This document shows positions 1 to 43,032 of a DNA stretch of 64,000 bases, one piece after another. The notes beneath the pieces were generated by a model, which was not told the origin of the DNA, did not search any database, and saw nothing but the letters and a program-made list of their open reading frames with translations. The DNA is from Selaginella moellendorffii (lineage: Eukaryota; Plantae; Lycopodiophyta): the NCBI RefSeq assembly GCF_000143415.4, contig NW_003314285.1, forward strand, positions 1,019,370 through 1,083,369, written 5' to 3'. The first letter of the stretch is position 1; each line of letters begins with the position of its first letter. The translations under genes were made by a program, and so were the position numbers.

Positions 1-534
1 CTTGTAGTGTCCAAGTTCGCCGCAATGATGACAACCTTGTCTATAATTCTTCACAAAGAACTTCTGCTTCTTGGACCCCTTTGCATCTGAAGTAGTCACC
101 ACCGACCTCAACTTGTGATGCTTGTTCCCATCCTTGTGTCCACGGCGATCATCACGACGATTCTCGACAGAAGGACTTCGCGAACGCTTACGAGACTTGT
201 GCTTGTCATTGTCAAGTCGACGAGCCGCATCAAAGAGCTCCTCCAAACTCTTTGTAGGCTAAGAATGACGCAAGTGCTGCCATATGCTCTCACTATGTAG
301 GCCATCAATGAAGTAGGATTTGTTCTGATCTGGATCCTTCGTTGGAACACGACTAATCAAGCGAGTAAGCTTCTCAATATAATCCCCGAGCGTCATTTTC
401 CCTTGCTGGAAATGGCGAAGTTTTATACGAGCATTCTCCACGTTGTAATGAGGGGCAAAACATAAACGGAAAGCAACCTCAAACTCATCCATGGTAGACA
501 CTGGTGGTTTCTTATCTGCAACACGGGACTCCTC

Positions 535-895
535 TGTCAGGAATCCCCCAATTCTTGCCACATTCCTGACTCTCGCCGGATTCCTGACCTGCAGACCACA
601 TTCCTGACTCTCGAGACACTTCCCTATTCCTGACTCTCGAGACACTTCCCGATTCCTGAGTCTCAAGCCACATTCCTGATGATGATGTGGCGCCTCCTCA
701 ACCTCAGCTGTATTTAGGCCGTCCTCGATCCAAGAGTGGTGGAGCTTCATCAACCTATAGTATATATAGGTTAGCCTTGTTCCATTTCTTCACAATCTGA
801 ATCAACACCAGTCTAAGGCTTCTTCTTTGTTTTCACTAGCTTTTTCTCTTTGTCTTTAGCATTTTCCAGTCTTGATCTTGTTGGGGGTCTTGACA
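535..895 (+). repeat. 5' LTR of element A
   Basis: Direct repeat of 5722-6082. TATA (tatatata ~761-768) and six ATTCCTGA repeats. Confidence 0.95.
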
Positions 896-992
896 GTTTG
901 ATTCAGATTGTTTTTTTTGCTTTTCTTTTAGCTCGTTTTGATTATTTGATTGCCTTTGTCTTTTTCCCCCTTTCTTTTCTTTCTTCTTGCCA

Positions 993-1964
993 ATGGAGTC
1001 TCCAAGCCATCCTGATTTCTTTGCCGAAGTCCTTGCAAAAATCCAGTCTGAGAATACCGAGCTGAAGGCGACCCTTCTTCGCATGCAGCAGGAGCTTGCT
1101 TCACTTTCGGCTCAAGGATCCAGCAAAGTTCCTGAACCGAAGGTGAGTTTCCCGGCGAAATTTTCAAGCAAGCGTTCGGAGCTTCGTGGATTTTTGAACC
1201 AAATGGAGCTGATCTTTGCACTTCAACATCGGCGGTACCCCACTCCCGAGTCTCAAATCGGCGCGATTGGAACGTTGCTCGAGGGTGCAGCTTTGTCATG
1301 GTTTTCTCCTCTTCTGGAGAAGAGCATGAAAGGGGTTGTGGTTCCGGAGCTGATGGATCTTCAATTATTTAAAGAGAAGCTCAAAGCATGTTTTGGCGAG
1401 ACGGATCGGGTTCGGGCTGCTACCACAAAGATGAGACGTCTCTCTCAGGGGTCTCGTCCTGCCTCGATCTACGCTGCAGAGTTCCAACTCCTTGCCTTGG
1501 ACACTTAGTGGGATAAGCGGGCCCTGATTGACCAATTTCGTTTCGGCCTCAACAATGGTGTCAAGGATTTGTTGCTCACCATGGAGGATCCCAAGGACCT
1601 GTCGGACGCCATCAACAAAGCTGTTCGATGTGACAATCGTCTTTTTGAACGTCGTCAGAAAAGTCGCCGCGCCGCTGTTTTTCCGTCCCAGACTCAAGAA
1701 TCCCAGCTTGAGTCTTCGGGGCATAGTCCTGAACCTACTGCTCCGGTCCCGATGGATATTTCTGGTACTCCCCGACTCATTAGAGGGAAGTTGAGTCCTG
1801 CTGAGAAGCAACGTCGAATATCTCATAATCTTTGCCTCTACTGTGCTGATCCTAATCACAAAGCAGCTGTGTGTCCCAGGAAGCCTCCCCGATTGCTTGA
1901 GTTCACTCTGCCTCAAAGTCCACCTCTGTTGTAGTCGGGAAACGACCCTGTCCAAACAGAGTAG
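993..1964 (+). pseudogene. gag: gag of element A (in-frame TAG stops at 1506 and 1932; natural stop likely 1962-1964)
   Basis: PAKFSSKRSELRGFL...LLEGAALSWF, PVPMDI motif, zinc knuckle CLYCADPNHKAAVC. ORFs 987 and 1569 share one frame. Confidence 0.85.
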
Positions 1965-4900: not shown

Positions 4901-5710
4901 AACTATCATCAGGATAACTGGTTCGATATCCTTCTCCTTGCTGAGTTCTCCTATAACAACTCTGTTCACTCCTCTCTTCGAGTTTCCCCCTTCTTTGCGA
5001 ACTCTGGCCGAAATCCCCGATTCAATCTCTCACTTCCTTCTCCATCTGAATCCTCTCGTTCAAATCCCCGCTCTGAGGCATTTATCTCCAACCTCCAGGA
5101 AATCCACAACTCCATCTCCTTCCACCTCCATCGTGCTCAGGAATCTCATAAAACATTTGCCAATGTCCATCGTCAGGATTGTCCCCCTTACAATATCGGG
5201 GATAAAGTCTGGCTCCTCAGGTGAAATATCTCCACCACCAGGCCCTGTCCAAAACTCGATTTCAAACGCCTTGGTCCTTTCCCTATCACTGCCATCATTA
5301 ATCCTGTCACTTATCGCCTTGCACTTCCCTCCTCATATCAAATTCATCCCGTTTTTCACTCCTCTCTCCTTGAGCTTTATATTCCCAATCCTATTCCAAA
5401 TCGGGTCATTCCTCCGCCTCCACCAGTGCAGCTCAAGGATGGGTCTGAGTACGAGGTTCAGGACATCCTTGATTCCAAGATTTCACGGTCTAAACTCTAC
5501 TATCTGGTGGACTGGAAGGGTTATGGACCTGAGGAACGCACTTGGGAACCTGCGGACAACCTGATTCATTCTCCTGACCTTGTTCAGGACTTCCATCGCC
5601 ACTATCCTTCTCGTCCTAGTCCTCATTCTTTTTCTCCATCTCCCATCCCTCGCCGCTCATCTCATCCTCCTCTTCGTTCTCGTTCACATCCTCGTTCCAC
5701 TCGTTCTTGA
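1937..5710 (+). pseudogene. pol: pol of element A (PR, RT, RNase H, integrase, chromodomain), -1 frame to gag, four in-frame stops
   Basis: LLDSGA protease, YLDD RT, HHCC and DDE integrase, YEVQDILD...YLVDWKGYGPEERTWEP chromodomain. ORFs 1976, 3155, 4127 and 5426 share one frame, with stops at 3107, 3671, 3893 and 5222. Confidence 0.92.
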
Positions 5711-5721
5711 GGAGGGGGTGC

Positions 5722-6082
5722 TGTCAGGAATCCCCCAATTCTTGCCACATTCCTGACTCTCGCCGGATTCCTGACCTGCAGACCACATTCCTGACTCTCG
5801 AGACACTTCCCTATTCCTGACTCTCGAGACACTTCCCGATTCCTGAGTCTCGAGCCACATTCCTGATGATGATGTGGCGCCTCCTCGATCTCAGCTGTAT
5901 TTAGGCCGTCCTCGATCCAAGAGTGGTGGAGCTTCATCAACCTATAGTATATATAGGTTAGCCTTGTTCCATTTCTCCACAATCTGAATCAACACTAGTC
6001 TAAGGCTTCTTCTTTGTTTTCACTAGCTTTTTCTCTTTGTCTTTAGCATTTTCCAGTCTTGATCTTGTTGGGGGTCTTGACA
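5722..6082 (+). repeat. 3' LTR of element A
   Basis: Direct repeat of 535-895, preceded by PPT and followed by TSD TCCTC. Confidence 0.95.
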
Positions 6083-9000
6083 TCCTCAAGCCAATTCCAC
6101 CATCGAAGACCCGCATCACGCAAAACCATTGGAATAGCCACTAAAGCCTCTGCATCTGGAGTTCCTCTAGCAGCCAAGAACTTCTTCACATTGGCTAGCC
6201 AAGCGAGACACTCGTCCACACCACCATCACCGGAAAAGGTTGGAATCTTGAGTCGATCTACCAAAGAAGGCTTACTTGGAGTGCTACCCCGTCTAGCCTC
6301 GAGTGCCTCAACACGCCCACGCATGGTATCCATCATGCCATGCATCTCGTCTTGCATCTCTTGCTGATTTCGATTAAGGGCTCACAACTCATGAGCCACA
6401 TCTTGAATGGTCCAAATCTCTGCAGCTTCGTCGGCACCATCGGCGGCACCACCATCGACAATAGGATTCCACGTTCAGCTTGGTCGGCCAATCCTCTGAT
6501 ACTAATGTTATGATCCGGCGCAAAAAGGCAAAGATCTAGTTGCCTTAGACTATGCTACGCCACCTCTTGAGGTTCCTCACCACCCAACCACCCCCGAGCT
6601 ACCTCAAAAGCTCCACTGCGCCGCCGCTCCACTGTGAGCCCTAGGGTAGGTTAAGTCCCTTACCCTAACATGCCTTAATATACCCTTGAGCCTCCCTTTG
6701 ACCAATGTTGACCACGTAGTCAAAGCTGGCGCCTAACAAATAGCACGTAGGAATTCTGTCCTTATGCTCGTCCGATCTAAGTACACTCGAAATGCCCAAT
6801 TGACTCCACTAGCATAAGAGGGGCTACTAACTGTAACGATTTCCTGCCGTCATGGCAGTAAGGAAAGAGTGTCCATAAGGATTGGCTGATAAGTATTTTT
6901 CGATACCCGAAGTCACATTCACAACACTCTCCCCCCCTTGGGGAAGATTGACGTCCTTGTTGATGCATACCCGAGTCTAGGAAACTATCAAGGAAACAAC
7001 TCCAAAAGTTAATGGAAAGCACACTATGTGGGAAACACACCAACTTAAATGAGTTATGGAACGACCTCTCCTCTACGTCCAAACGTTAAGACTCAGACAC
7101 CTTCTGGCCGTCACCGACAAGGAAATGACTAACAGAGTTAATTACCCTTGTTGCTCCAAATACCACTCAGCTTACAAAAGAATGATACATCCCTACCCGC
7201 AGGGATATAGGGAGAAGGCTAAAGGCCCAACTTCCCCTGAGCAAGAAATCAACCCCATCGGGAAGATTTAGACAACCATTATAAACTGGTAGATTAAGTT
7301 GTTTACACGACCACGCCCCTTTTGCAAAAGTGAGTCATCAAGAGAGAGGTGGGGACTTGTGATCAGTCTATAATAGTTATCCCCATGGTTATGGATTGGA
7401 CCCATGCACCGAAGTGCCGAAGTCAGCCTGTCAAATTGACCCAAATACTAATGAACGAGAGAAAAAACACTTTGATTTATAGAAAGATATTACTTTATTA
7501 ATTTGCAAGATTTATTACAAGATTTACAAAAACTAATCTTTATTACGATTCTCATACTCAGTGACAAGCTCACGAGCATGTGTAAGATTCCTAAGAGGTT
7601 CCCAAGTTGATTCACAAGACAAGTAACCTTGCCACTTAACTAAATATTCTTTCGCACGAGCCTGTCTTTGGGACCGAGCATCCAAAATAGCTTCAACTTC
7701 ATATTTTGGTCTACCGTCCACAACATTGATACCTATCCTAAGCTTTGCCCATCACCTTAGTTGCTCTAGACCAACCTTGACGTAGCTGCTCCGCATAAGT
7801 CTCAACCGCCAGGACCACCACTTTGGTCATTGGTCTCAGTACAACAATCTGTTGAGGCACTTCGCGAGCATTTTCTTGCAACATCTCCTATGGAGAATAG
7901 CCAATAGTGCTGTGAAATGTGTTGTTATAACAAATTTCTACTGTATCCAAATGCTCAACCCAGTCGCATTGGTCCGCCGCGACATAGTACCGCAGATAAT
8001 CTTCAACTTGAGCATTCACACGTTCAGTCTGCCCATTAGTTTGAGGATGATAAGCTGTACTAAATTTCAGCTTGGTACCAAACAGCTGGAACAGTGTGCC
8101 CCAAAACTTCCCCGTACACCTCAAATCCCTATCCAAGATCATCTCTTCGGGAAGACCATGAACCCGCACTACTTCATGGAAAAATATCTTTGCTGCTTGT
8201 TTCGCATTCACTATTCCCACAGTTGGAATGAAGTGTGCAATCTTCAACAACTGATCCACAACCACCATCAAAGTATCATAACCCTTAGACTTCGGCAAGC
8301 AAGTGACAAAATCAAATGTCACATTCTGAAATGGCCATATCAGTGCTGGAATGCACTGCAACTTTCTAGCCTGCTTCTTAGCTCTGCACTTACATTGCTG
8401 GCATATAAGTAGGAATGGACATAATCCGCTACATCACTTTCCATACCAGACCAGAAAAATCCCTTTTTCAATGAAGCCAGAGTCTTTCACTTCCCACCAT
8501 GTCCCGCTATCGGAACATCATGATGTTCCCGTAAAAACAACTACTGCAAGTCCTTAGAGGGAAGATATAATCTTTCTTGCTTATAGAATATAAGCCTATC
8601 CCGAACTGAGAAGTGAAGCTTCGCATTGGTGCGGTTAGCAACTTTCGCTACCTCGCTACTAAAGTTTTGCTTCGACAACTCCGCACAGCGTAAGATTGCC
8701 TTTGCCAATGGATCACTTTCATAAAAAACCCAAATGTCCTCCAACCAGTCCGAACTGATTGCCGATATTGCTTGGAATTGAGCCTGACAACTCAACACAT
8801 CCAAAACAATATTGTCTTTACCATATGATTTCAATATCATATCTAGCAAGCTTCTCTTGCCAACAAGCCTGCTTTGGCGTAAGCTTAGGCTACATAGCAA
8901 AGTAGCTCAATGTGTTACCATCCATATAAACCTTGGTATAGTGTCTTCAGTGTTCCAGGGCCGACACTATAGCAAACATCTCTTTCTCATGCGTTGGCCA

Positions 9001-10854: not shown

Positions 10855-11773
10855 TGTCGCGAATGTGACTTCGGGTATCGAAAGATACTTGTCGACCAGT
10901 CCTTACGGGCACTCTTTCCTTACTGCCATGACGGTAGGAGGTCGGTACTGCTGGTTCCCTTTATTGGCCCCTCTTGTCCAAGTGTTAGTAAACTGGACTT
11001 AGCATCTGTACTTGGCCGGATGAGCATAAGGAAGGAATTCCTAAGTGTCTATTTAGCCAAGCATACTTGGCCCGGCTTGTTAGTTCTCTTTTGCTCTGTC
11101 TTGCACTGGCTTGGCAAGAACCCTCGCGTATTGAGACTAGTCCCTCAATATCGCCGGATGATAGCTTACCGTGTCTGCCAAACACCCTCGCTATCACGCC
11201 CTTTGTGTTGGTCTCATTTCAGTCCCGAATGCTATTTATGGAAGGTGTCTAGATTAGCTCATTTGGCATATCTACGGAATGTAGAGATCGGTCTGAACAC
11301 AATGGTGTTCATCCCATGTCCAAATTCGCAATCTAAGGACATTCCATATTTAGTAAGTTTCGGACTTGTCCCAGAGACTAACTCCTGGTACTAAGGGAGG
11401 CTTGGGGTGAAAGCCCAAAGCGTGTGTCCCTCAAGGGGGGGGGGCTGTGGGGGGTTCCAAATGTATAGTAGGGATAGTGGTTGGAATGCATGTCCGACCA
11501 CCTGAGACATTAGTTTGGCTCCCGCTGGGCTGTGTCGCTCCTTGTTCTGCGTCCGGCTTGGGTCTAAGCCCAAGCTCCACGCTGCTCTAGTCGGTGGAGT
11601 ACCCTCCTTCTCGCGTTAGGCCACCGGTATGCCAAAATTGTGCCAGACTCCGTCTGACACCATTTTGCGTGCAGGTGCTGGATACGGGGAGCTGGTGCTC
11701 GTGGGATTGTACCGGACCCTCGTTTCGTAGCGCAACGGGCTTGGAGTTCGGCTCCAAATTCAGGTGCGCTACA
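10855..11773 (+). repeat. 5' LTR of element D
   Basis: TGTCGC...GCTACA, direct repeat of 17289-18207. Confidence 0.96.
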
Positions 11774-11946
11774 TTTGGTATCAGAGAAATTGTCTTAGCG
11801 ATTTCTATCCAACTTTTGTCGGATTTTCTGACTCAAGTTGCATACGCAGAGACTTTTCTAGTAGATCCGAAGCGACCTGTGTAGGATTAGTTGGATTGCA
11901 CCATTCGGTAAGAACGTTGTATGCATGTTCAGTTACTGATAGAGGC

Positions 11947-14900
11947 ATGCATGCAGCTAGCAGGATGGTGAAGAGGAACCGTGCTGATGACGCTGAAACC
12001 TCTAGACAGGCGAATCGAGAGGAGGAAACTCCTATTAGAGATGCTGCGGAAGGGGCTGAGGCCGAGTCGGAGGAGGAAGAGCCAGATGCTGCGGCATTGC
12101 AGCGTACGGCTCAGGAAGTTGAAATCGAGAATTTGCGAAGGGAGATTCGCAAATTGAAGAAGGAGAACAAGAAGAGGAAGAAAGAAGCTGAGGCAGCTAA
12201 ACCAGCTAAGCCTAAGCAACCGGACTCCTCTTCGAGTTCTGAGGACGATGAAGTTCTGCAGCCGCCCCCAGTTGCACGAGTTTCAAAGTTCAAGCCTCCG
12301 AAACCGCCTAATTTCAGAGGCATGCGGGACTATCAGGTTTTGGAAGACTGGGTCTACGATATGGAGAACTACTTCATAGCGGCAGACGTAGATGATCGTA
12401 CGAAAGTTGCGTGCGCGCAATCCTTTCTCACCGATCATGCCAAAACTTGGTGGCGCCAGGTGTGTGCTGAAAAAGGGCAGACTAGAAGTTGGACCAAGAT
12501 GCGGTCTCGTATCCGTAAGGAATACTTGCCGGATGATCTTGGTCTGAGACTTCGCGCAGAGCTGCGGCGGTTAAAGCAGCGAGGGGACCTTATGCATTAC
12601 GTTAATGCGTTTGCTCAGAAGCGCATTATGATTGCAAATATGAGTGACGAAGATGCTCGGAGTTATTTCCTGGAGGGTTTAAGTTCACTTTCTCGAAATG
12701 AGATTTTGAAGTTTAAGCCGAAGACGTACCTGGAGTGTAAGGAGGCAGCACAGCAAGTTGCCTTTAGTCACTCGCTCATAGAACAATATCAGCAATCGTA
12801 TGCTGGTAATTCGGACAAGAATAAAAATTCTGGGAATAAGCTAGGTGATCGGAAACAAAGGGTGGAAAGTAGATACCGCCCTGGGGGCTCACAAGCTACG
12901 GTGAATAAAGGTGGTGGTGGTTGGAGACCACCAGCAGCTTCTTCTGGTCCTAGGCCCTCTGTTCCTCCTCCTGGTGGGTACAAGCAGCAGCAACCTACAA
13001 AACCTGCTCCTAGCGGAACGGGTAGTGTGGGCCATTGCTTCCATTGTGGAGAGTCGGGACATAGGTCCTCGGAATGTCCCAACAAGCATAAGACAAGGTC
13101 TCGGGTTAATGTCATGCGGGAAGACGGTGGTGGCGAAGCCGAAGGGGTTGACGAGTTGGTCAATGCAGACTATGAGGAAGAGGAGGTGAGTAACTTTCGT
13201 TGCTTTCCTCAAGCTTTTCTTGCAGTCAATGCAAACACTGATCCGTTGATGTATCTGGTAGGCTTTGTCCGTGGACACCGAATCCGAGTGATGATTGACA
13301 CGGGAGCTACGCACAGTGTGATATCCGAAGACTTAGTTAAGTTGTTAGGATTGAATGCTGAGCAAATGTCGCCTATGCACTTCCGGTTTGCGGAAGGTGG
13401 GCAAGTAGCCAGAAAGTTTGTGAGTGATGTTCCAATAAAGATATCCAAGTGGAAAGAAAGAGTGGACTTGGTAGTGTTGAAGATACCAGATTTTCAGATG
13501 GTGTTTGGTATGGATTTCTTCAACAAGTATATAAAAGGGATTTATGGTGCTGGACAAAGTCGTATCACGTTGAAGTCAGAAGGACATCCTGATGTATCCT
13601 TTCAGTTGCAAAAGCGTTCCTCAAAAGATTGGGATGCAAAGTTCCTGACTGCGAGGGCCGCTCAAAAAGCAGCTAAAAGGGGATGTCAGACATTTTGGGT
13701 TCAAGTGATAGAAGCTGAGGGTATTGGTGACTCAGTACGAATCGGCGACGGGGTTGATCCTGTACCAAAAAGGATATTGGAGTTGTTGGCGAGGAATCAG
13801 GATATCTTTCCGAAGGATTTGCCGCCAGGGCTACCACCTAGCCGTGAGGTTGATCATCGGATTGAGATTATTCCGGGTTCTAAACCACCTACGAAAGCTC
13901 CATATCGGTTGAACATCAAGGAGATGGCTGAACTCAAGAAGCAACTCATGGAGCTTCTTGACAAAGGTCATATCCGACCAAGCAAGTCACCTTATGGAGC
14001 GCCAGTCCTTTTTGTTATGAAAAAGGATGGAACCATGAGGATGTGTATTGACTATCGGGCACTCAACAAGATCACGGTTAAAAACAGTTATCCTTTGCCT
14101 CGCATTGATGACTTGTTTGACCAACTCTTAAAGGCTAAGTATTTTACGCGACTTGATTTGCGGTCCGGGTATCATCAGATACGGGTGGCAGATCAGGATG
14201 TAGAGAAGACAGCCTTTAAGACTCGGTACGGATCTTATGAGTTCCTTGTCATGCCATTTGGATTATGCAATGCTCCGGCAACGTTCAGCACTATGATGGA
14301 TAGAATATTCGGAGATTACTTGGATGCATTTGTTGTCCTGTATATTGACGATGTTCTAGTCTTTAGTGAAACGTTGGAGGATCATTTGAAACACTTGGAG
14401 CTGGTGTTTCAGAAGTTGCGCGAACACAAACTGTATGCTAAGGAAAGTAAATGCGCTTTTGGACAATTGCGCGTAAACTTTCTCGGACATATAGTTGGTG
14501 GTGGCGTGATTGAGGTCGATCCAAAGAAGGTGGAAGCAGTGAAGTCCTGGGAAGTTCCGACCACTGTATCAGATGTTCGATCCTTTCTCGGTTTGGCGGG
14601 ATACTATCGTAAGTTTGTCCGCAATTTTGCAAGGATTGCTCTTCCGTTGACTGAGTTGACGAAGAGTAGTATTCCGTTTCATTGGACACCAGTTTGCCAG
14701 CGTGCTTTTGCACGGTTGAAGGAGATCTTGACTACAGTTCCTGTTCTCAGGATCCCAGATCTTGATAAACCCTTCGAAGTGCATTGTGATGCATCTGGCT
14801 ATGCTATTGGTGCCGTGTTGCAGCAAGATTGTGACAAAGCGGTTGGTGTTACGCTAAGGCGACATGGTTGTCCCGTTGCGTTCTATTCCAAGAAATTGGA

Positions 14901-16680
14901 TGAGACCCAACGAAGATGGCCAACGCATGAGAAAGAGATGTTTGCTATAGTGTCGGCCCTGGAACACTGGAGACACTACTTGGGTGGACATACCAAGGTT
15001 TATACAGATAGTAACACACTAAGCTACTTTGCTACGCAGCCTAAGCTTACGCCGAAGCAGGCTCGTTGGCAAGAGAAGCTTGCTAGATATGATATTGAAA
15101 TCATATATAAACCTGGTAAAGACAATATTGTTCCGGATGCGTTGAGTCGTCAAGCTCAATTCCGGGCAATATCGGCAATCAGTTCGGACTGGTTGGAGGA
15201 CGTTCGGGCTTGGTATGGAAGAGATCCATTGGCGAAGACAATCTTACGCCGTGCGGAGTTGTCGAAGCAGAGCCCTGGTAGCGAAGCAGCAAAAGTTGCT
15301 AGTCGCACTAATGCGAAACTTCACTTCTCAGTTCGGGATGGGCTTATATTCTATAAGCAAGAAAGATTGTATCTTCCCTCTAAGGATCTTCAGCAGTTAT
15401 TTCTGCGGGAACATCACGATGTTCCAGCAGCAGGACATGGTGGACAACGAAAGACTCTGGCTTCATTGAAAAAGGGATTTTTCTGGTCTGGTATGGAAGA
15501 TGATGTAGCGGACTATGTCCGTTCCTGTCCTGTATGCCAGCAATGTAAGCGCAGAACTGAGAAGCAGGCTGGAAAGTTGCAGTGCATTCCAGCACCGGCA
15601 TGGCCATTTCAAAGTGTGACACTTGATTTCGTCACTTGCTTGCCGAAGTCTAAGGGTTATGATACTTTGATGGTGGTTGTGGATCGGTTGTCAAAGATTG
15701 CACACTTCGTTCCAACTGTGGGAACAGTAAATGCGAAACAAGCAGCAAAGCTCTTTTTCCATGAAGTAGTGCGGGTTCGTGGTCTTCCTGAAGAAATGAT
15801 CTCAGATAGAGATTCGAGGTTTACGGGGAAGTTTTGGGGAACCCTGTTCCAGTTGTTTGGTACCAAGTTGAAGTTTAGTACGGCTTATCATCCTCAAACT
15901 GATGGGCAGACCGAACACGTGAATGCTCAAATTGAGGATTATCTGCGGTACTATGTCGCGGCGGACCAACGCGACTGGGTTGAGCATTTGGATACAGCAG
16001 AAATTTGTTATAACAACACATTTCACAGCGCTATAGGCTGTTCTCCATGGGAGATGTTGCAAGGAAATGCTCGTGGGGTTCCTCAACAGATCGTTGTCCC
16101 GAAACCAATGACCGAAGTGTTGGTCCCAGCCGTGGAAACTTATGCAGAGCAGCTACGCCAAGGTTGGTCTAAAGCTACCGAGGCGATGGGCAAAGCTCAG
16201 GATAGGTATCGACGTGATAAAGATCAGCATCGTCGGGATGTATCCTATCAAGTGGGAGATCAGGTGTGGCTATCTTCCCGAAACTTGAACATTAAGGGTT
16301 CTCTGTCTCGGAAGCTCTTGCCGAGATATGTTGGACCCTATCGGGTGTTGCGGCGCATTGGTAATGTATCCTATCAGTTGGATCTTCCTGTGGAGATGTC
16401 CAATATTCATAATGTATTTCATGCCAATCTCTTGGCTCCATACACCATGGATGATGCACATCAAGCGGAGATTCGTCCACCACCAGAAGTTGTGGATGGT
16501 GAACCTGAATATGAAGTGGAAGCTATTTTGGGTACACGCTGGCTTAAGCGTGCCAAACGTCGGGAGTATCTCGTTAAGTGGAAAGGTTACCCATCTTGTG
16601 AATCAACTTGGGAGCCTCTTAGTAATCTTACACATGCTCGTGAGCTTGTCACGACATATGAGAATCGTAATAAAGATTAG
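11947..16680 (+). CDS. gag-pol: Gag-Pol polyprotein of D (start ATG 11947 or 11965)
   Basis: KPPNFRG gag, [14 protein letters not shown] knuckle, MIDTGA protease, YIDD RT, DAS RNase H, HHCC/DDE integrase, GPY and chromodomain (YEVEAIL...[17 protein letters not shown]). Confidence 0.96.
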
Positions 16681-16781
16681 CTTTTGTAAATCTTGTAATC
16701 AATCTTGCAAATCAATAAAGTAATATATTTCTATAAATCAAAATGTCGTTTCTCTTGTTCGTTCATACTTGGGTCAGTTTT

Positions 16782-17275
16782 GGCAGGCTGACTTCGGCAC
16801 TTCGGTGCATGGGTCCAATCCATAACCATGGGGATAACTATTATAGACTGATCACAAGTCCCCGCCTCTCTCTCGATGGCTCATTTTCGAAAAGGGGCGT
16901 GGTCGTGTAAACAACTTAATCTGCCAGTTTATAGTAGTTATCTAAATCTTCCCGACGGGGTTGATTTCTTGCTCAGGGGAAGTTGGGCCTCTGGCCTTCT
17001 CCCTATATCCCTGCGGGCAGGGATGTATCATTCCTTTGTAAGCCGAGTGGTCCTCGGAGCAGCAAGGGTGGTTAACTCTGTTAGTCATTTCCTTGTCGGT
17101 GACGGCCGGAGGGTGTCTGAGTCTTAACGTCTTTGGACGTAGAGGAGAGGTAGTTCCCTAACTCATTTAAGTCGGTGTGTTTCCCACATAGTGTGCTTTC
17201 CGTTAACTTTCGGAGTTGTTTCCTTGACGGTTTGCTAGACTCGGGTACACATCGACGAGGACGTCGATCTTCCCT
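16782..17275 (+). other. Conserved, covarying structured RNA region in the 3' UTR of D-family elements (also 40501-41000 + and ~6941-7430 -)
   Basis: Multiple hairpins (GCAC-UUCG-GUGC; 12-bp stem 16837-16848/16927-16938; CCGAG/CTCGG; ATCGACG/CGTCGAT) with compensatory substitutions between D, F and C. Confidence 0.7.
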
Positions 17276-17288
17276 AAGGGGGGGAGAG

Positions 17289-18207
17289 TGTCGCGAATGT
17301 GACTTCGGGTATCGAAAGATACTTGTCGACCAGTCCTTACGGGCACTCTTTCCTTACTGCCATGACGGTAGGAGGTCGGTACTGCTGGTTCCCTTTATTG
17401 GCCCCTCTTGTCCAAGTGTTAGTAAACTGGACTTAGCATCTGTACTTGGCCGGATGAGCATAAGGAAGGAATTCCTAAGTGTCTATTTAGCCAAGCATAC
17501 TTGGCCCGGCTTGTTAGTTCTCTTTTGCTCTGTCTTGCACTGGCTTGGCAAGAACCCTCACGTATTGAGACTAGTCCCTCAATATCGCCGGATGATAGCT
17601 TACCGTGTCTGCCAAACACCCTCGCTATCACGCCCTTTGTGTTGGTCTCATTTCAGTCCCGAATGCTATTTATGGAAGGTGTCTAGATTAGCTCATTTGG
17701 CATATCTACGGAATGTAGAGATCGGTCTGAACACAATGGTGTTCATCCCATGTCCAAATTCGCAATCTAAGGACATTCCATATTTAGTAAGTTTCGGACT
17801 TGTCCCAGAGACTAACTCCTGGTACTAAGGGAGGCTTGGGGTGAAAGCCCAAAGCGTGTGTCCCTCAAGGGGGGGGGGCTGTGGGGGGTTCCAAATGTAT
17901 AGTAGGGATAGTGGTTGGAATGCATGTCTGACCACCTGAGACATTAGTTTGGCTCCCGCTGGGCTGTGTCGCTCCTTGTTCTGCGTCCGGCTTGGGTCTA
18001 AGCCCAAGCTCCACGCTGCTCTAGTCGGTGGAGTACCCTCCTTCTCGCGTTAGGCCACCGGTATGCCAAAATTGTGCCAGACTCCGTCTGACACCATTTT
18101 GCGTGCAGGTGCTGGATACGGGGAGCTGGTGCTCGTGGGATTGTACCGGACCCTCATTTCGTAGCGCAACGGGCTTGGAGTTCGGCTCCAAATTCAGGTG
18201 CGCTACA
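17289..18207 (+). repeat. 3' LTR of element D
   Basis: Direct repeat of 10855-11773, preceded by PPT. Confidence 0.96.
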
Positions 18208-21200
18208 CCTATGTCCCAACTCTCCACAATGGAAGCAATGACCCACACTACCCATTCCACTAGGAGCAGGTTTTGCAAGTTGCTGCTGCTTATACCCACC
18301 AAGAGGAGGAACAGAGGGCCTAGACCAAAAGAAGCTATTGGTGGTCTCCAACCATCACCACCACCTTTGTTAACCGTTGTTTGTGAGCCTCCAGGGCAAA
18401 ACCTGCCTTCCACCCTCTGTTTCCGATCACCTTGTTTATTCCTAGAATTCCTATTCTTATCCGAGTTACCAGCATATGGTTGCTGATATTGTTCCATGAG
18501 CGAGTGACTAAAGGCAACTTGCAGCACTGCCTCTTTACACTTCAGGTACGTCTTCGGCTTAAACTTTAAAATCTCATTGCGAGAAAATGAACTTAAACCC
18601 TCCAGAAAATAACTCTGAGCATCTTTGTCACTCATATTTGCAATCATAATGCGCTTCTGAGCAAACACATTAATGTAATGCATGAGATCCCCTCGCTACT
18701 TTAACCGTTGCAGCTCCGCATGAAGTCTCAAACCAAGATCATCCAACAAGTATTCCTTACGGATACAAGACCACATCTTGGTCCAACTTCTAATCTGCCC
18801 CTTTTCAGCACACACTTGGCGCCACCAAGTTTTGGCATGATCGGTGAGAAAGGATTGCACACACGCAACTTTCGTACAATCATTTACGTCTGCCGCTATG
18901 AAATAGTTTTCTATATCATAGACCCAGTCCTCCAAAACTTGATAGTTCTGCATGCCTCTGAAGTTGGGTGGTTTTGGAGGCTTGAACTTTGAAACTCGTG
19001 CAACCGGGGGCAGCTGCAGAACTTCATTATCCTCAGAACTTGAAAAGGAGTTCAGTTGCTTAGGCTTAGCTGGTTTAGCTGCCTCAGCTTCTTTCTTCCT
19101 CTTCTTGTTCTCCTTCTTCAATTTGTGAATCTCCCTTCGCAAATTCTCGATCTCAACTTCCTGAGCCGTACGCTACAACGCCGCAGCATCTGGCTCTTCC
19201 TCTTCTGACTCGGCCTTAGCCTCTTCCGCAGCATCTCTAGCAGGAGTTTCCTCCTCTCAATTTTCCCGTCTAGAGGTTTCAGCGTCATCAGCACAATCCA
19301 ACTAAGCATACACAAGTTGCTTCAGATCTACTAGAAAAGTCTTTACGTATGCAACTTAAGTCAAAAAATCTGACAAAATTTGGATAGAAATCGCTAAAAC
19401 AATTTCTCTAATACCAAATGTAGCGCACCTAAATTTGGAGCCAAACTCCAAGCCCTTTGCGCTACGAAATGAGGGTCTGGTACAATTCCACGAGCACCAG
19501 CTCCCCATATCCAACACTTGCACGCAAAATGGTGTCAGACGGAGTCTGACACAACTTTAGCATACCGGTGGCCTAACGCGAGGAAAAGGGTACCCAACCA
19601 ACTACAGTAGTGTGGAGCTTGGGGTTAGACCCAAGCCAGACATAGAACAAGGAATGACACAGCCCAACAGGAGCCAAACTAATGTCTCAGGTGGTTGAAC
19701 ATGCATTCCAACCACTATCCCTACTATACATTTAGAACCCCCCATAGCTCCCACCCCCCCCCCCCCCCCCCCCTTAAGGAACACACGCTTTGGGCTTTCA
19801 CCCCAAGCCTCCCTTAGTACCAAGAGTTAGTCTCTGAGACAAACTTGAAACTTACTAAATATGGAATGGTGCTAGATTGCGAATTTGGACACAAGACGAA
19901 CACCATTCTGTTTGGGCCGATCTCTACATTCCATAGATATGCCAAATGAGCTAATCTAAACACTTTCCATAAATAGTATTTGGGACCGAAATAAGACCAA
20001 CACAAAAGGCGTGATAGCGAAGGTGTTTAGTAGACACGATAAGGTATCATCCAGTGATATTGAGGGACTAGTCTCAATACGCAAGGGTTCTTGTCACTAA
20101 CAAGTGCAAGACAAAATGAGACAAGAACTCTTTACCGAGTTAAGCATGCTTAAGTAATAGCACATAGGAATTCCATCCTTATGCTCATCCGGTCTAAGTA
20201 CACTTGAAATGCCCAGTTAACTCCATTAGCATAAGAGGGGATACTAAAGGGATCCAATTGTACCGATCTCCTGCCGTCATGGCAGTAAGAAAAGAATGTC
20301 CATAAGGACTGGCCGACAAATATTTTTCGATACCCGAAGTCACATTTGCGACAAGCTACTTAGTGAATAATGCAATATCATACTCTTGAAAGATCTCATT
20401 TATAGCATATGTGGTTTTCACCCTTTACCTTATAATAATTTATCATAGGATAATTATAGAGTAGAACTTAACTTTTAAGACACATGTGCCAAGGGCAACA
20501 AAGTGGGACCTAAGTTTCGAAGTTTTGAACTACTAAATAAAAAGATAGTGCCAAACTCCCAAACATGCAACTAAGGAGCAAAAGAACAAAAGTGTGGAGT
20601 AATTTCCAAGCATACAACCAAGGAATGAAAGAATAAGAGTATAAAGCAACATTAAAATAATTCTAGAGTATTTAACATTTTTTAACATGAAGTCTAATAT
20701 GCAAAATGGAGCCAAACAAAGTTTCACACTATATTAGCATATTAATGGCCTAATGTGAAGAAATGAGTACTTCACCAACTAGTATGATATAGAAATTAAG
20801 TTTAGACTCAAAACAGACACAAAAAAAGAATAAACACATCTAAACAATATTTTAAGTTTGTTGGCCATACCTTACCTATCCATTATCTCTATTATACATT
20901 TGGAACCCCCTAAAACACAATATTAACTTCTAACTATACTGGTAATTGAAATATATTATTCAAACTTTTAAGCAATATTTTTTATGTTTTATTTTCCATC
21001 AATAGGATAATTAGGTTGAGTTTTTTTTCTTTTACCGAGTTTTCTTATAATAACTTTATCATTCTTTAACACATCACTTTTCATTCTTCATACACTATTG
21101 TTATCATCCTTATTGGTTAATTATTCAACTAAGTTTGCTGTATTGATGAGCATTTTTCCACTTGTCTAAAGTAACTTCATCTATAAAGCATTTATGCCAC

Positions 21201-34867: not shown

Positions 34868-37800
34868 TGTCGCGCATGTGACTTCGGGTATCGAAAGTTA
34901 CCTGTCGGCTAGTCCTTACGGACACTCTTACCTTACTGCCACGATGGCAGGAGGTCGGTATTGCTGGACCCGTTATCAGTTTCCACCTAAGCTAGTTGAG
35001 AAACTGATCATCACATGTGCACTTAGACCGGAAGGGCACTAAGGAAGGAAATCCTAAGTTGTCATTTAGTCAAGCAGACTTGACACGGTGATGAGAAACT
35101 CATGATGTTGGCTTGCACTTGCTAGTGTTAGGAACCCCCGCGATATTGAGATTGGTCCCTCAATATCGCTACATGATAGCTTACCGTGTCTGCCAAACAC
35201 CCTCGCTATCATGCCCTTAGCGTTAGTCTCAATTCGGTCCCAAATGCTATTTATGGAAAGTGTCCAGATTTGCTCATTTAGCATATCTACGGAATGTAGA
35301 GATCGGCCTGAACACAATGGTGTTCGTCCCGTGTCCAAATTCGCAATCTAAGGACATTCCATATTTAGTAAGTTTCGAGCTTGTCCCAGAGACTAACTCC
35401 TGGTACTAAGGGAGGCTTGGGGTGAAAGCCCAAAGCGTGTGTTCCTCAAGGGGGGGGGGGGGCTGTGGGGGGTTCCAAATGTATAGTAGGGATAGTGGGT
35501 AGGTTGGGCATGGCCGACCAACCTGAGGCATAGTCTAGTTCCCGCTTGCGTGCCTGTCCTTGTTCTGCGTCCGGCTTGGGTCTAAGCCCAAGTTCCATTC
35601 CATGCTAGCTGGTGGAGTACCCATATCCTCACGTTAAGCCACCGGTATGCCGAAATAGCGCCAGACTCCGTTTGGCTCCGTTTTGCGTGCTGGTCCTGGC
35701 GTTGGTATGCTGGTTGCTCCAGGACTGTTCCAAGTCGCTCTGGGCTCCTGTCCCTTCGCTCCTTGGGCTATATGCTCGGGAGTTGCTCTGTGGTCCGGTT
35801 CCATCACTCCTTGGCGTCACGCTTGGGAGTTTGGCACCGTTCCTTCGTTCAGTGGCCCAAGGCCCTGAACCTTGGGTTCCTATGGACACGTGGCACGGAC
35901 ACGTGGTATGTGACACGTGGCATCTGTCACATGGCACAAAGAGGGTTTAGGTTCCGCTTCGTGGTGTTATCCTATGGTAAATCACCATAGGATAAAGGGT
36001 CAAAACCACGTGCGCTACATTTGGTATCAGAGGATGAGTCTCAGCGAGTACTATTCAATGAGATTGGGCAACTAGTCTTGTTGCATACGCAGAGATGAAA
36101 ACGATGATCCGAGTGGGTACACGTTTGGGTGCAAAGGCTTTGCAATTGGTTCCTTGGGTATGGATATTGTTACCTTATTGTACCTTATGATGTGAGCTTG
36201 CGCTTGGGCTCATAGGACGGATTTGAGTTGTTCTGGTAGCACGAGTTTAAGCTTGAGCTCGTGAGTGAGGCACATTAGCAACTCGAGGTTACACTTTGAG
36301 TTGGCAGGATTAATGTTAGCCTATCGGTGGTTCCATGAGTTGTTCCATGTACCGTGGGTGAAAGTAAACTTTCCCTGAGTTTGCTATGAATGGCAAATAG
36401 GCTGGTCCGTAGCTGTTTAGCACGGCACTAGTGGATCCTTCCTAGGTATGATTATAAGTGGATCAATCAAGACTATATGGATTAGTCTATTGGTTCAAAT
36501 AATCATGGCCGTGCTCTCTCATAAACTTTTCTTGGATTGAATTGAAGGCAGTGCGAAAGCAAGCTTGAGGTTTGGTCAAAGATGAGACCGGAAAGAGAGT
36601 CGTCAGGGACGAAGGATCAAATACGTAAATCATTTTCTCTTCTTGGAGAGATGATTTGCAACGAGGTGTTAACTCATTGCTTGTGTTCACATTATGCAAT
36701 CAAGAGTCCCTACCTTGATGCATGTTGGAAGTGATGGTCTTACAAGTGGTGAATTGTGGGATGGATAGCGGTGAAACGTTAAACCATTTTGTCTAAAGCT
36801 TGCTATTGGAAGACTTGGGTTGCAATGCTCAATTCTTTTCTGGGGAACCTTGCTATTGCTCCTTGAGTAGCTTGGTGTTGAAATAGTTTTGAGATTGGTC
36901 GGAAAGAGAGTGGCATAAGCTTGTCTGTGTTGTGAACAAAAGTTAGTGGTGTTGGGTGTCGTAAATCTCTATTGGTGGAGTGTGGTATTTATGTTGCATT
37001 TTGTCGAATCGAGTTGGCATTTGATACTCACATAAACATTTGAAGTAATGACATAAGCTTTGCTCATTGCGTTACTCAATTGATGATCAAGTCATTGTGA
37101 TTTATATCATATCCATGTGATAATGAGCAATGTGTTTACGAAGTTGCTTGGTTAAATGATGATCAACCCCAAAGTGGTTGATGGAGAAGCTAGTCTACTT
37201 GCACGTAGTAGCATTGTAGTAGCCTTGACTAGATTCTCAATGGTGGTCCATTATGCTAAGCTTATGTTGGTACCTTGTTTCCTTGAGGGTTTGCCCATAA
37301 GGTGTTGGGAATGGGTTGTAGCATTCATTTGCTATAGCTCATTTATTGATCCGTTAGCACTTGGAGTAGATTATTGGATGGAGAAGGTGTGAGGTTGATG
37401 CATTGACATCGCTAGCACTTATGTTATGGAAGTGACATTGTTGATTCGAGTGATGAGGAATTTTCCTTAGAGCTTGATTTTCCATGTCATTTTTCTTGTT
37501 AGTGTTTTGGCTTCACATTGGATCTTGAAGGTAGTTGAAGAAGAGTGTTAGTGCAATGTGGATATCCGATGATGTGGTCTTTGTGATCAAGCCTTGGATG
37601 CTCATTTTGCACTTTGCGGATGTCGGTGTTGGATGTCGGTTATATGGGCAAAGATGTTCGATGCTTAAGCATGTTGTTCGATCATGAGAATTTGTGTTGA
37701 GGTGAGCCTATGTGAAGTTGTTGGTAGGAGGAAGTTGGTTGAGTCTTGAAAGTTTGCAATCCTGGACTGAGAGTCATTCTTTCTCTAGGATGGGAAATTT

Positions 37801-40800
37801 TCCACAAATTTTCTTAGACTTTTCCAATGGCTGGTCTAATGATCATTTTGTCCGAAAACCATTCCGTTTTCGAAAGCCAGTACAAACTAGTGAAGGGGTT
37901 GGAGTTGACTTCGGTTAACTTAGATCTTGGTAGGTAGTTTGTATGATGCAACCCGAAAGGGATGCTGACTTTTGGGGCTAAGGCAATTGAGTTGGATAGA
38001 GTCTAGAGTTGATGTAGAAAAGTGGCCGTTGCGCTTTTCTAAGAAAGGTGACCCTTGTGCCTGTCTTCTATAGTGTTCTGCTTGGTGGTAGGTTGCACCT
38101 TGCATTTCATTAGACTCTATGAGAGTAGTGAGCTCTCACTGATCTTGACTTGGTCTTGGTGGCCTTGCGCCTTGGCTGAGGATGGTGATGTCCAACTTAG
38201 TTGTTTGAGTTTGAGATGTTGGTACCCATACTATAGCTTTGTCTATGAGGAGGTTGTGTACCAATATAGATCCATCTCATGGTCTTCACTTTAGTTTCAG
38301 CTGAGTGTTGATCATGCATAGCTAGCCTCTTCAAAGCATGCTCAGAGCTATTGGCTAAATGCATTGGTGAGCTTATTGCAGTTGAGTTGGATTCGAGTGG
38401 TCATTTAGTTTGTGCTTGTCAATGAACTTTTATCTCATACCCAAGGTATCACGTTCATGTTGGACAAGTGTATGACTCGATGACGTGAGTTTAGTGTTTG
38501 GGTCTTGTAAAGACAAGTTGAAAGAGTGATTGTTAGTTGCTTTGCGACTAATGATTGCTTGTAGACTTTGTCAAAAGACTGTTGACACTTGCTTCACTCG
38601 ATGATGATTTAGCAATGATAGGTTTGCTTTACCGGATGGTGTTGCGGAGGATTGTGTCGTTAAACTTACATGGTTTTTCCATGTTGACATGTCGATTCTA
38701 TCTCTGTCGATATCATTTGGTTGCATTTAGTTCGTGGTGTTGGATTTCATTGAGTCTTGGATGTGGTGACTCACTCCTTGAGGAAGTGTTATCTGTAACT
38801 GAGTTTTGCTGAAGGATTGGTCTCGGATACTAAATATAGTATCTTCGACTTTGGTTAGCTTGGTTGCTAGAAAGCTCTGAGTGGTGATTCACTCTTGCTT
38901 TCTTCTAGCTTTGTCCTGGTGTTGTTGGCATTGAAGTGATGCCTTGTCATTGATATTGTTGATATTGAAATCTGAGTGAAATGAGATGTCTCTCTCTGTA
39001 GGGTTGATATTAAGTTTCATTAGTCTTGATGAATATAGTGTTGATGATTTGGCTATAGTTTTGTGTTGTTGGCATTCATGCATTTGCTAGTTAGCAAGTG
39101 TGTTGACGTTCAAACGAACTGAGTGGCAAGTTGAGTTAGTTGTGTTCTAGACGAGATTATTTAGTAAAGGTTGAGCTTTGGCTTTTCCTTGAAAAGTGAT
39201 TCAGTCATGGACGATGCTAACTCTACAAGCAGAAGAGTTAGTGATTGATATTAGAATGTTGAGTCCTTGCTGGATTTGAGTTCGGAATATAGCAATCATT
39301 AATGATTCTTTTTGAGCTTGTTATGAAGTGAGTTACGTCTTGCTATAGATGGATTCATGGAGGATCGTTTGATGATCACTTGTTAAACATAGCTTCGTTA
39401 TGCTTAGCTTTTGGATTGATGCAGAAATGCTCTTCATTAGCTTTGGCATTATGAAGTTTGGCTTATGGATGTGTTGAGGAAGATATTGTGGGTTGCACCA
39501 TGATTTCTTCTTTAGCATTGAAGTTAGCTTTTATGAGACTCGTGATCATTATTAGGCAAGACTTAGTTATAGGCTTCTTCGAGCTTTTGGTTCTTGAGTT
39601 TTGTGCTCATTGTTCCATTTGTTAGAAGTTGTTGGGGAAGGCATTTTGGCTCATTAGCTTCGATGTTGAAGTTGGTTTTTGCATCTGGCAATCATTGGTG
39701 ATGATTGACTATCATCTAGGGTAGTTGATTGTCCTTATCACAAGTTTTGCTTGATTATTGTTGGTTTGGAATTATTTGCCATTCTTTGGGATGGTAGATT
39801 CTTTCTTCAACGATGATTATACATCACTACATTGATGGGCTGATTGACGATCTTTCATGATAGTTAGTTGTTCTCTTTGATGGCTTTTGGCTTTTGGCAA
39901 TACCACATGTTCTTTGTGGTTTGCTCTGGATTGGTCTCTTGGGTTTGAGACGTCAGTAGGATGTTGCTGACACTTGCTTAGGCAACTTGAGTTCCTTGGT
40001 ATTGTTGGCTGGGATCTATTCAGATTGGCTTTTGTGATAGTTGGCAGGAATGAGTGTTTGTTGGTCTTACCACATTCATTTTCTTCTGTTGATTGTTGCT
40101 CGAGTTAGTTTTGATAGATTTGGATATTATTTCCTTTGGGTGATACATTCGCGAGCATTGTGCTTGTTAGTCAATGATACTTTGTGTTCTTTGAGTTCTC
40201 TCTAGTAAGTTGTTGGCTTACTATCTACTATCTTCGATAGTTAAGTTTCATCATTGAGTTTCCTTGATGATATACTAGCTATTGAATTTTGTTGGATGGT
40301 CATTCCTGTGTTTGCCAAATTATGATGATCTGTTGGTGGTTCCTATCTACAATACTACTGGTTTATCGGATGATAACTTGCTTAGAATACTTTTGTGTTC
40401 TACTCTAAGATATAATCACTAGTAATTAAGCTTCTCAGATATCATTGTCTCTGACTTTGATATTGTCCATCCATTGATCTTTGAGTTTGGGCCAATAATG
40501 GGCAGACTGGCTTCGGCACTTCGTGTGCATGGTGAAATCTCTAGTCATGGGGTAGCTACTGTCGACTGGTCACATAACCTGCCCCTTTGTTGATGGTCCT
40601 TATTCCGTTGAAAGGGCGTGACCGTGTAAACAACTCTAACTGCCTGTTTACAGTAGTCTATCTAAACCTTACCGACGGGTTTGGTTTCTTTGCTTAGGAG
40701 GGTAGGGGCCTCTGGCTTCTCTCTCTATGTTCCTGCGGGCAGGGCATATCACACTTTTGTAAGCTGGGTGACTCCCAGAGCAGCAGGTGTGGCTGACTCC

Positions 40801-42162
40801 GTTGGTCATTTCCTTGTCGGCGACGGCCGGAAGGTGTCTGAGCTGGTAGCGCATCCGCGTTAGACAAAGAGGTTACCCCCTAACTCATTTAAGTTGGTGC
40901 ATTTCTCACATAGTGTGAGTACCATGAACTTTTTATGGAGTTGTTTCCTTGGCGGTATTCTAGACTGGAGTATGCATCGACGAGGACGTCGATCTTCCCA
41001 AGGGGGGGAGAGTGTCGCGCATGTGACTTCGGGTATCGAAAGTTACCTGTCGGCTAGTCCTTACGGACACTCTTACCTTACTGCCACGATGGCAGGAGGT
41101 CGGTATTGCTGGACCCGTTATCAGTTTCCACCTAAGCTAGTTGAGAAACTGGTCATCACATGTGCACTTAGACCGGAAGGGCACTAAGGAAGGAAATCCT
41201 AAGTTGTCATTTAGTCAAGCAGACTTGACACGGTGATGAGAAACTCATGATGTTGGCTTGCACTTGCTAGTGTTAGGAACCCCCGCGATATTGAGATTGG
41301 TCCCTCAATATCGCTACATGATAGCTTACCGTGTCTGCCAAACACCCTCGCTATCATGCCCTTAGCGTTAGTCTCAATTCGGTCCCAAATGCTATTTATG
41401 GAAAGTGTCCAGATTTGCTCATTTAGCATATCTACGGAATGTAGAGATCGGCCTGAACACAATGGTGTTCGTCCCGTGTCCAAATTTGCAATCTAAGGAC
41501 ATTCCATATTTAGTAAGTTTCGAGCTTGTCCCAGAGACTAACTCCTGGTACTAAGGGAGGCTTGGGGTGAAAGCCCAAAGCGTGTGTTCCTCAAGGGGGG
41601 GGGGGGCTGTGGGGGGTTCCAAATGTATAGTAGGGATAGTGGGTAGGTTGGGCATGGCCGACCAACCTGAGGCATAGTCTAGCTCCCGCTTGCGTGCCTG
41701 TCCTTGTTCTGCGTCCGGCTTGGGTCTAAGCCCAAGTTCCATTCCATGCTAGCTGGTGGAGTACCCATATCCTCACGTTAAGCCACCGGTATGCCGAAAT
41801 AGCGCCAGACTCCGTTTGGCTCCGTTTTGCGTGCTGGTCCTGGCGTTGGTATGCTGGTTGCTCCAGGACTGTTCCAAGTCGCTCTAGGCTCTTGTCCCTT
41901 CGCTCCTTGGGCTATATGCTCGGGAGTTGCTCCGTGGTCCGGTTCCATCACTCCTTGGCGTCACGCTTGGGAGTTTGGCACCGTTCCTTCGTTCAGTGGC
42001 CCAAGGCCCTGAACCTTGGTTCCTATGGACACGTGGCACGGACACGTGGTATGTGACACGTGGCATCTGTCACGTGGCACAAAGAGGGTTTAGGTTCCGC
42101 TTCGTGGTGTTATCCTATGGTAAATCACCATAGGATAAAGGGTCAAAACCACGTGCGCTACA
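34868..42162 (+). mobile_element. Non-autonomous large retrotransposon derivative (LARD) F related to D
   Basis: ~1150-bp LTRs at 34868-36019 and 41013-42162 (~99% identical); PBS 36022-36032; PPT ~41000-41012. U3 and 3' UTR homologous to D; 4.4-kb interior has no ORF. Confidence 0.88.
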
Positions 42163-42638: not shown

Positions 42639-43032
42639 TCCTGGGAGGTCACCCAGCCCAGTACTATTCAAACCCAAGGACGCTTAACCCCAAATATCTC
42701 AAGACCCTTAACCGATTGGAAAAGGGGGTGCACTCTTGTTCATGGGCCCTTTCCCTCTATATTTGAACCCCATGGATCGTCTCTCAAGTTGTTCCCTTTG
42801 GTTGCTTACAATCCACCACGCTTCCCTACAAGTTCACGCCCTCGTGAACGAAAGCTGAGAGCCGCAACTCTCCCGAGAGCCCCGCTCTCTTGACACCCTA
42901 CCCCTCGGGTCGAGCCCAGCGAGAGCAAACTGGACCAGCCAGATGTCAATCAACATGTGGTGTGATTCCCTTAGCCAACCAACAGAGTCGGACTCGAGAC
43001 CGCTCTGATACCAAATGTAAGCTCCTGAGTTT

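Follow-up and report, generated by a model that had tools for sequence, protein, structure and literature searches.

What does a retrotransposon that encodes nothing still need to keep? The 64,000-nt stretch of Selaginella moellendorffii DNA analysed here (the window; positions are counted from its first letter) carries an intact Ty3/gypsy chromovirus, element D, and a non-coding element, F, which shares with D about 500 nt before the polypurine tract (PPT). An original prediction, made from the letters of this DNA, held that these 500 nt belong to a large covarying RNA structure at the 3′ end of the family, retained by its non-coding satellite and acting in cis. Is that structure real, how far does it reach, and what might it do?

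The elements and what they share

Element D is the published S. moellendorffii chromovirus SM2-Galahad, of the Galadriel clade. Its protein has a group I chromodomain and a CCHC knuckle, and in a FastTree integrase tree it is sister to P0201, P0207, P0232 and P0235, which we take to be angiosperm Galadriel-type proteins. The 919-bp LTRs are 99.7% alike, with the TSD CCTAT and a tRNA-Met PBS; the length, LTR size and identity, TSD, PBS, PPT and 1577-aa ORF are those published for SM2-Galahad (PMC3350952; this and the other papers cited here are drawn on in their accessible parts). Element F is a recently inserted non-coding partner of D. Two LTRs, a PBS and a PPT enclose a long non-coding internal region, as in LARDs, with a 4.5-kb filler that has a longest open frame of 95 codons and no pol homology. 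Homology between the two elements is limited to the LTRs, about 75 nt of leader after the LTR and the approximately 500 nt before the PPT, where it begins abruptly (16782 in D, 40501 in F). As predicted, this stretch is common to D, F and a third copy, C: D 16782-18115 and F 40501-41843 agree at 81%, and C covers the same stretch on the minus strand. The family is also represented by C, E and G, all of them decayed or incomplete copies. The features are collected in Table 1.

Table 1. Positions of the elements and of their structural features in the window
Feature	Position	Strand	Remarks
Element D, intact Ty3/gypsy chromovirus (SM2-Galahad match)	10855..18207	+	7353 bp
Single ORF of D, gag-PR-RT-RH-IN-chromodomain	11947..16680	+	1577 aa from first ATG
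Structured pre-PPT domain common to D, F and C	16782..17275	+	
Long 5′ stem (stems 1 and 2 of the original prediction)	16832..16943	+	Invariant single-stranded 16909-16917
Hairpin with GACG tetraloop (16954-16957)	16944..16967	+	Two double changes in F
Second possible GACG-loop hairpin	17096..17109	+	Low probability in the global ensemble
3′ rod	17171..17256	+	Base helix 17171-80/17247-56
G-(N)GGA-C hairpin adjoining the PPT	17251..17268	+	Structure kept across chromoviruses
Polypurine tract of D	17276..17288	+	Also PMC3350952
Structured 5′ part of LTR, presumed U3	17289..17866, also 10855-11432	+	
PPT-like G tract, then TGTG, inside LTR	17867..17883	+	
Decayed copy C of the pre-PPT domain	6925..7432	-	
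Element F, non-coding LARD-like partner	34868..42162	+	LTRs 34868-36020 and 41013-42162, 99.2% alike
Long G-U-rich rods, in F only, upstream of the shared domain	39860..40500	+	z -9.3
F copy of pre-PPT domain, hairpin (40976-40993) and PPT	40501..41012	+	
AGGG-loop form of the hairpin, preceding the PPT in an unrelated TRIM	42832..42849	-	Hairpin-model match

In contigs of three DNA runs from one sample, D-type and F-type ends both abound, and C>T and G>A account for most of the differences. Genomic contigs often show F-type sequence at the shared 3′ end, seen there as loose ends. In three RNA runs, which had no positive control, 5 of about 27.6 million reads map to 15300-18300, and none of the listed sequence records holding the region is recorded as RNA.

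Several further observations concern the neighbourhood. A kinase encoded in the window is 97% identical to an S. moellendorffii protein. A second chromovirus, A (534-6082), has 362-bp LTRs and 39% protein identity to D; it shows no excess folding, and a scan of the window with the hairpin model described below found no hairpin at its end. An unrelated TRIM (43209-42639 on the minus strand, and 34867-34841) has 193-bp LTRs, the TSD AGCTC, a tRNA-Met PBS and a 205-nt internal part, and F is inserted into its 3′ LTR (TSD TCCTG). At the end of the F insertion lie 476 extra nt (42163-42638), whose minus strand resembles the LTR and PBS of another small element; the terminus of that element resembles that of F, and its composite with F carries one TSD. 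Inside the D LTR, a GAAA-tetraloop hairpin stands ahead of the G tract with TGTG, and the start of an old LTR fragment (20910-20400, minus) falls at the place matching this internal tract. The D-family LTR may have grown by a move to an upstream PPT. Poly-G tracts have also been noted for SM1-Galahad (PMC3350952).

Compensatory change in the large 3′ fold

Pairs were predicted from one sequence only (probability >0.7), and the substitutions of the partner were permuted within base and methylation context. On this test the pre-PPT domain shows, from D to F, 11 double compensatory changes among 104 pairs against a null expectation of 2.8 (0 of 2000 permutations) and, from F to D, 9 against 3.3 (p = 0.003), figures that come from two lineages and from adjacent pairs that are not independent; the analysis as a whole drew on three to four copies per segment. 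The claim that the pattern continues into U3 stands for 17289-17866 from D to F (7 doubles against 1.7, p = 0.0015; 11 broken pairs against 28 expected), the reverse direction giving just 3 doubles against 1.5 (p = 0.17). The U3 hairpins originally put forward are, however, almost invariant and so add little covariation, the hand-picked pairs amounting to 1 double change, 7 one-sided changes and 2 broken pairs. The leader start yields 5 doubles against 1.8 (p = 0.02). No excess is found in the 3′ part of the LTR, at 17880-18115, compared between the same two elements at similar divergence (1 double against 1.0 from D to F, 0 against 0.6 from F to D), or in the ORF of D versus G, a weak control given the decay of G.

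Within the pre-PPT domain, 19 of the 41 pairs changed from D to F are broken (null 24.5, p = 0.09), paired sites change no less often than unpaired ones (0.30 versus 0.21 changes per site), and the antisense strand gives a weak signal too (6 doubles against 2.0, p = 0.016). Among the 40 best-supported genomic variants, beyond which lie 465 others, are 29 differences between D and the majority in 16782-17866; all 9 that fall in modelled helices keep the pair, a check that is not fully independent, as the helices were partly chosen with C, E and F in view. G-U pairs make up 11 (D) and 12 (F) of the 95 pairs in these helices, or about 12%, which favours action as plus-strand RNA. Taken together, these comparisons lead us to regard the structure modelled in 16782-17866 as real and selected, in a known element and its satellite.

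The four stems singled out in the original prediction are present as written. Between D and F, stem 1 differs by a double change, two one-sided changes and a single mismatch; in C it pairs throughout. One double and one one-sided change mark stem 2, stem 3 shows two doubles, with G-U intermediates in C, and stem 4 shows three one-sided changes. The UUCG hairpin at 16797-16808 fails as a shared tetraloop, since F has a 5-nt loop there. The domain also holds several short covarying hairpins. Its best-supported helix, at the base of the 3′ rod, shows two double changes for which C holds G-U intermediates; it occupies the 5′ arm of the AGGA hairpin beside the PPT, so that the two forms are mutually exclusive, and they are predicted to lie about 3 kcal/mol apart, D preferring the helix and F the hairpin. 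Over 9 bp, and with just one one-sided change, the tip of the rod (17213-21) could pair with 16909-17 in each of D, F and C, a candidate loop-loop contact which, being nearly invariant, draws no support from covariation. GACG loops, spotted after the fact, number three in D (0 of 2000 shuffles) and two in F (p = 0.0045). The two GACG hairpins lie 140 nt apart, with predicted pair probabilities of 0.83 (D) and 0.11 (F) for the first, and 0.03 (D) and 0 (F) for the second. In the loop of a conserved U3 hairpin, 17570-17577 contains a hexamer that is self-complementary in D and E, and in F solely via G-U, which might be a weak candidate for dimer initiation.

Thermodynamic stability does not single the region out. 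The domain does fold below its shuffles (z -4.5 in D, -2.2 in F and -1.9 in C; -3.4 for the U3 part), as had been expected, but the rest of the element does so equally, with z from -2.0 to -5.2 in all five windows of the D ORF and from -2.2 to -6.9 in all four windows of the F filler; 17 windows in host genes, in elements A, C and G and in other DNA range from -1.8 to +2.1. Because the D ORF and the F filler fold as well or better, we rejected the z-score as a sign that the region is special: the large 3′ fold shares in a tendency to fold that runs through the whole element, and is set apart by its retention in F, not by its stability. The antisense strands of the D ORF and F filler (11947-16680, 36021-40500) often have a low z as well.

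Two doubts concern the large fold itself. It may be part of an ordered RNA structure spanning the whole element, serving compaction, stability or escape from silencing, with no dedicated binding site or role, and kept by F through descent beside the PPT. That the D ORF and F filler are strongly negative, as host genes and A, C and G are not, and that paired sites vary as fast as unpaired ones agree with this reading, and the D/F pair does suggest element-wide folding as a trait of active copies. We nevertheless find it rather improbable as an account of the 3′ end, given that F retained these 500 nt, single-stranded invariant motifs included, when the rest of its internal sequence was replaced, and that D and F are 96% identical in the last 165 nt of the U3 fold while 17401-17560 is at 64%. 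The other doubt, that the covariation is a product of chance, arising from two sequences, G-U-tolerant deamination and freedom of alignment, can point to the two lineages, to the genome-wide prevalence of C>T and G>A changes and to the 19 broken pairs. It seems very improbable to us, because the null kept both the substitution spectrum and the methylation context, the neighbouring part of the LTR has no excess, and G-U intermediates are seen in C.

The fold was not recovered outside its family. Rfam returned no match at gathering score for D or F, a toga_FSE match (29.5 bits, under the gathering score of 40) being rejected as chance, and blastn did not find the large domain in the chromovirus loci. 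In a search of other elements with a covariance model of 16828-17115, the only match in 91 loci was antisense, in a tandem repeat of locus L185, and was rejected; in these searches the large domain was seen only in the D/F family. An origin of the pre-PPT domain and U3 as old duplicates found no support (local alignment p = 0.3, 0.8, 0.015 and 0.5, and no model match).

The hairpin beside the polypurine tract

The original prediction described one family-specific domain that included an invariant AGGA hairpin next to the PPT. A family-restricted fold of about 1.1 kb stands, and the hairpin is invariant between D and F, but three of its seven pairs are broken in C, and it is a separate structure, far older and more widespread than the large fold. 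This hairpin constitutes the new result.

Ty3/gypsy loci were gathered from metagenome, genome and viral collections, 101 of 112 aligning into the integrase end or the chromodomain, and sites were picked on letters only: NGGAC and, 5-22 nt after it, a purine run with TG. This gave 24 distinct sites among the 101 diverse chromovirus loci, plus D. Stem positions 2-6 are paired in 110 of 125 cells, compared with a mean of 56 and a maximum of 75 in 5000 shuffles of the 3′ side, and 362 other GGAC sites pair at 27-40%. Each stem position shows three to five pair types, that is, the stem sequence is free, and at sites where the register is shifted, G-C closes a 3-nt GGA loop. Of the 24 sites, 18 have a stem of at least 4, and in all 18 the loop lies 21-27 nt and the stem base 13-21 nt before the LTR start, a spacing partly constrained by the 5-22 nt selection window and counted to the first TG after the purine run, the presumed LTR start (repeat-confirmed in 2 of the 24 sites). 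At the listed sites the hairpin ends before the PPT, with no PPT in the loop and no right arm inside the LTR.

Pairing was among the grounds for choosing the 18 sites that went into a model, which returned 50 matches at E<=1 in the 73 loci outside the model, all on the sense strand, which is partly expected because the model contains PPT letters; 21 matches fall below an E of 0.05, 19 of them in the 1 kb that follows pol. In the model-fitted alignment, which is biased towards the model, 94% of cells are paired and 85 double changes occur. The 286 pairs of 42 distinct sites comprise 266 Watson-Crick, 5 G-U, 5 A-C and 10 other mismatches, and 5 of the 42 sites fold poorly. Carriers are spread over many branches of the integrase tree, some of them being close relatives (L001/L005; L210-L230). 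The hairpin is not universal: letter selection gave no site in most of the 101 loci, some contigs of which end early. Five hairpin-bearing loci had no Rfam match. Among other scans, exact patterns of the LTR motif found nothing in viral or metagenome contigs, a single-protein scan of viral contigs found no relative, and a degenerate pattern of hairpin plus PPT hit 120 loci in viral contigs, none with pol homology, and was dropped.

Two side observations concern the same collections. Seventy-nine loci with Ty3/gypsy pol (L130-L208) lie on contigs that are filed under bacterial and archaeal genomes; they most likely stem from eukaryotic contamination. The proteins P0124, P0125, P0140, P0196, P0201, P0207, P0232 and P0235 carry C-terminal xRT(T/S/N) and RGR before G-rich ends; from the proteins alone, these motifs fit the hairpin loop read in different frames, and the hairpin would probably explain, at the nucleic-acid level, why some C-terminal motifs of integrases look 'conserved'.

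Possible functions and known systems

As F has no proteins, whatever it keeps must presumably act on its RNA or cDNA in the particle of its helper. A cis-acting RNA, as originally proposed, is in keeping with a selected structure that F retains through compensatory changes; of the roles then listed, the ribozyme finds no support in Rfam or in a core-motif scan, and translation enhancement is improbable, given that F has no coding capacity. The reading that we prefer, at about even chances, is a cis-acting replication signal with two layers, in which a family fold would serve Gag packaging and dimer linkage, and a chromovirus-wide hairpin would position RT/RNase H for the plus-strand primer cut. 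The large fold would act as plus-strand RNA, packaging by Gag and dimer linkage of the genomic RNA being favoured because F retains it and because of its GACG loops, which might kiss as in gammaretroviral packaging cores. The D/F pair would thereby mark a candidate packaging domain. GACG loops have a role in retroviral packaging and dimers (PMC5874298, PMC516450); against the packaging view, the GACG pairs of retroviruses belong to the 5′ leader and not to the 3′ end.

The hairpin is separated by roughly one RT footprint from the PPT/U3 junction downstream of it, so that it would mark the upstream edge of the primer duplex, and its fixed spacing to this junction points to primer formation. In HIV RT, the polymerase-RNase H spacing is about 18. 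The corresponding spacing in Ty3 is about 13 bp (PMC5371799), and a PPT stem-loop has been proposed as an RNase H signal in Copia (PMC2829016). The hairpin could work at the RNA level, as a pause site while the minus strand is being made, or at the DNA level, folded in the newly made minus strand; a DNA form would explain both the near absence of G-U from the stems and the freedom of the 5′ arm to join the covarying helix 17171-80/17247-56 in RNA. The hairpin is also kept by the TRIM, whose internal part has only 205 nt. More tentatively, and on balance doubtfully, the hairpin may, in many Ty3/gypsy chromoviruses of plant, algal and fungal-type branches, be required for plus-strand priming, dictate integrase C-termini (xRT, ED or RGR, according to frame) and, in SM2-Galahad, be switched by the competing helix of the larger domain.

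Other functions have been weighed against this two-layer signal. With the hairpin as a separate matter, the large domain may be an export or stability element of the unspliced genomic RNA, bound by a host factor like the CTE, RTE or MTE. The MTE and CTE are similar in size and lie between pol and the 3′ LTR, as the large domain does. A non-coding partner needs export as well, and the candidate contact between 16909-17 and 17213-21 is kept in D, F and C, as would suit an element like the MTE, which relies on a kissing loop together with a pseudoknot (PMC3362945, PMC12786077). We still consider export unlikely, since the domain resembles the MTE or CTE neither in sequence nor in Rfam, the contact is nearly invariant and lacks covariation support, and the export of plant LTR RNA has, according to PMC12786077, not been studied directly. 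A captured or novel ribozyme, either a retrozyme-like self-cleaving RNA or an intron remnant, would be consistent with a large multi-helix fold with invariant joining strands and with the existence of plant non-autonomous Ty3/gypsy retrozymes (PMC4918200), but is extremely improbable: D and F have no Rfam match at gathering score, a scan with core patterns revealed neither a hammerhead, hairpin or pistol core nor one of a group I or group II intron, and only chance matches of 6-8 letters to loose HDV and twister patterns, and a cut before the PPT would presumably remove the 3′ R needed for strand transfer. Ribozyme and group I/II intron identities were rejected on these scans. For the small hairpin, a pure spacing role leaves the conserved loop sequence unexplained; the loop suggests protein contact, which makes Gag binding a live rival, with the exposed GG loop as a Gag/nucleocapsid site and a minimal packaging signal across chromoviruses, not a priming aid. 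Loops rich in G are bound by zinc knuckles, of which D has one (CCHC); the loop is conserved while the stems are free, and the hairpin occurs in two non-coding elements (F and the TRIM). A packaging signal, however, need not hold a distance of 21-27 nt to the LTR start, and G-U pairs are almost absent (5 of 286), so we regard this alternative, too, as unlikely.

How new are these structures? The original prediction knew of no description, and a full-text literature search found none of the fold or of the (N)GGA hairpin, subscription papers being mostly outside its scope, so that a mention elsewhere is possible. The element itself is published (PMC3350952), and LARDs and the MusD MTE are known kinds. 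In its accessible part, the description of SM2- and SM1-Galahad contains no RNA structure, PPT hairpin or non-coding partner (PMC3350952); the 1.15-kb LTR of F, with its poly-G tract, resembles that of SM1-Galahad. Like F, LARDs (Sukkula) and TRIMs are non-coding, have a conserved predicted RNA structure and need an autonomous helper (summarized in PMC7215508), but the D/F structure is common to the helper, with compensatory change between both. The MusD transport element and the IAP RTE (PMC3362945, PMC12786077) are likewise structured cis elements of several hundred nt with long-range loop contacts; they are mammalian and NXF1-linked, whereas the D domain shows no sequence or Rfam likeness to them and its loop contact is a candidate only. 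Two GACG hairpins, as in the gammaretroviral packaging core (PMC5874298, PMC516450), are possible in D and F, but lie 3′ of pol, the second being weak, with no Rfam match and no palindromic DIS shown.

For the hairpin, one comparison is with the T/U-box or TCTT that lies upstream of the PPT in Ty1, in retroviruses and in the Tf elements of fission yeast and helps to define the plus-strand primer (PMC10085805); many hairpin sites have a pyrimidine-rich spacer, but the T/U-box is linear, with no hairpin in the accessible account. The hairpin of PMC5445492 sits at the PBS position. The choice of plus-strand primer by retrotransposon RT and the signals that let satellites exploit a helper are open questions, plant cis signals being almost unstudied, and an 18-nt hairpin with a fixed loop and spacing offers a handle on primer selection and a marker for 3′ LTR boundaries; it is the part most worth following. 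Its closest known relative is the inverted repeat around the Copia PPT, which Sireviruses share with roughly half of the classic Ty1/copia elements (Bousios et al. 2010, PMC2829016). Both are stem-loops placed precisely at the PPT, and the Copia repeat, too, has been proposed as an RNase H aid and may overlap coding sequence. The Copia arms, however, are 19-28 bp long, with the PPT in the loop and the right arm in the LTR (PMC2829016), whereas the Ty3/gypsy hairpin has a 5-8-bp stem wholly upstream of the PPT and a conserved 3-4-nt (N)GGA loop.
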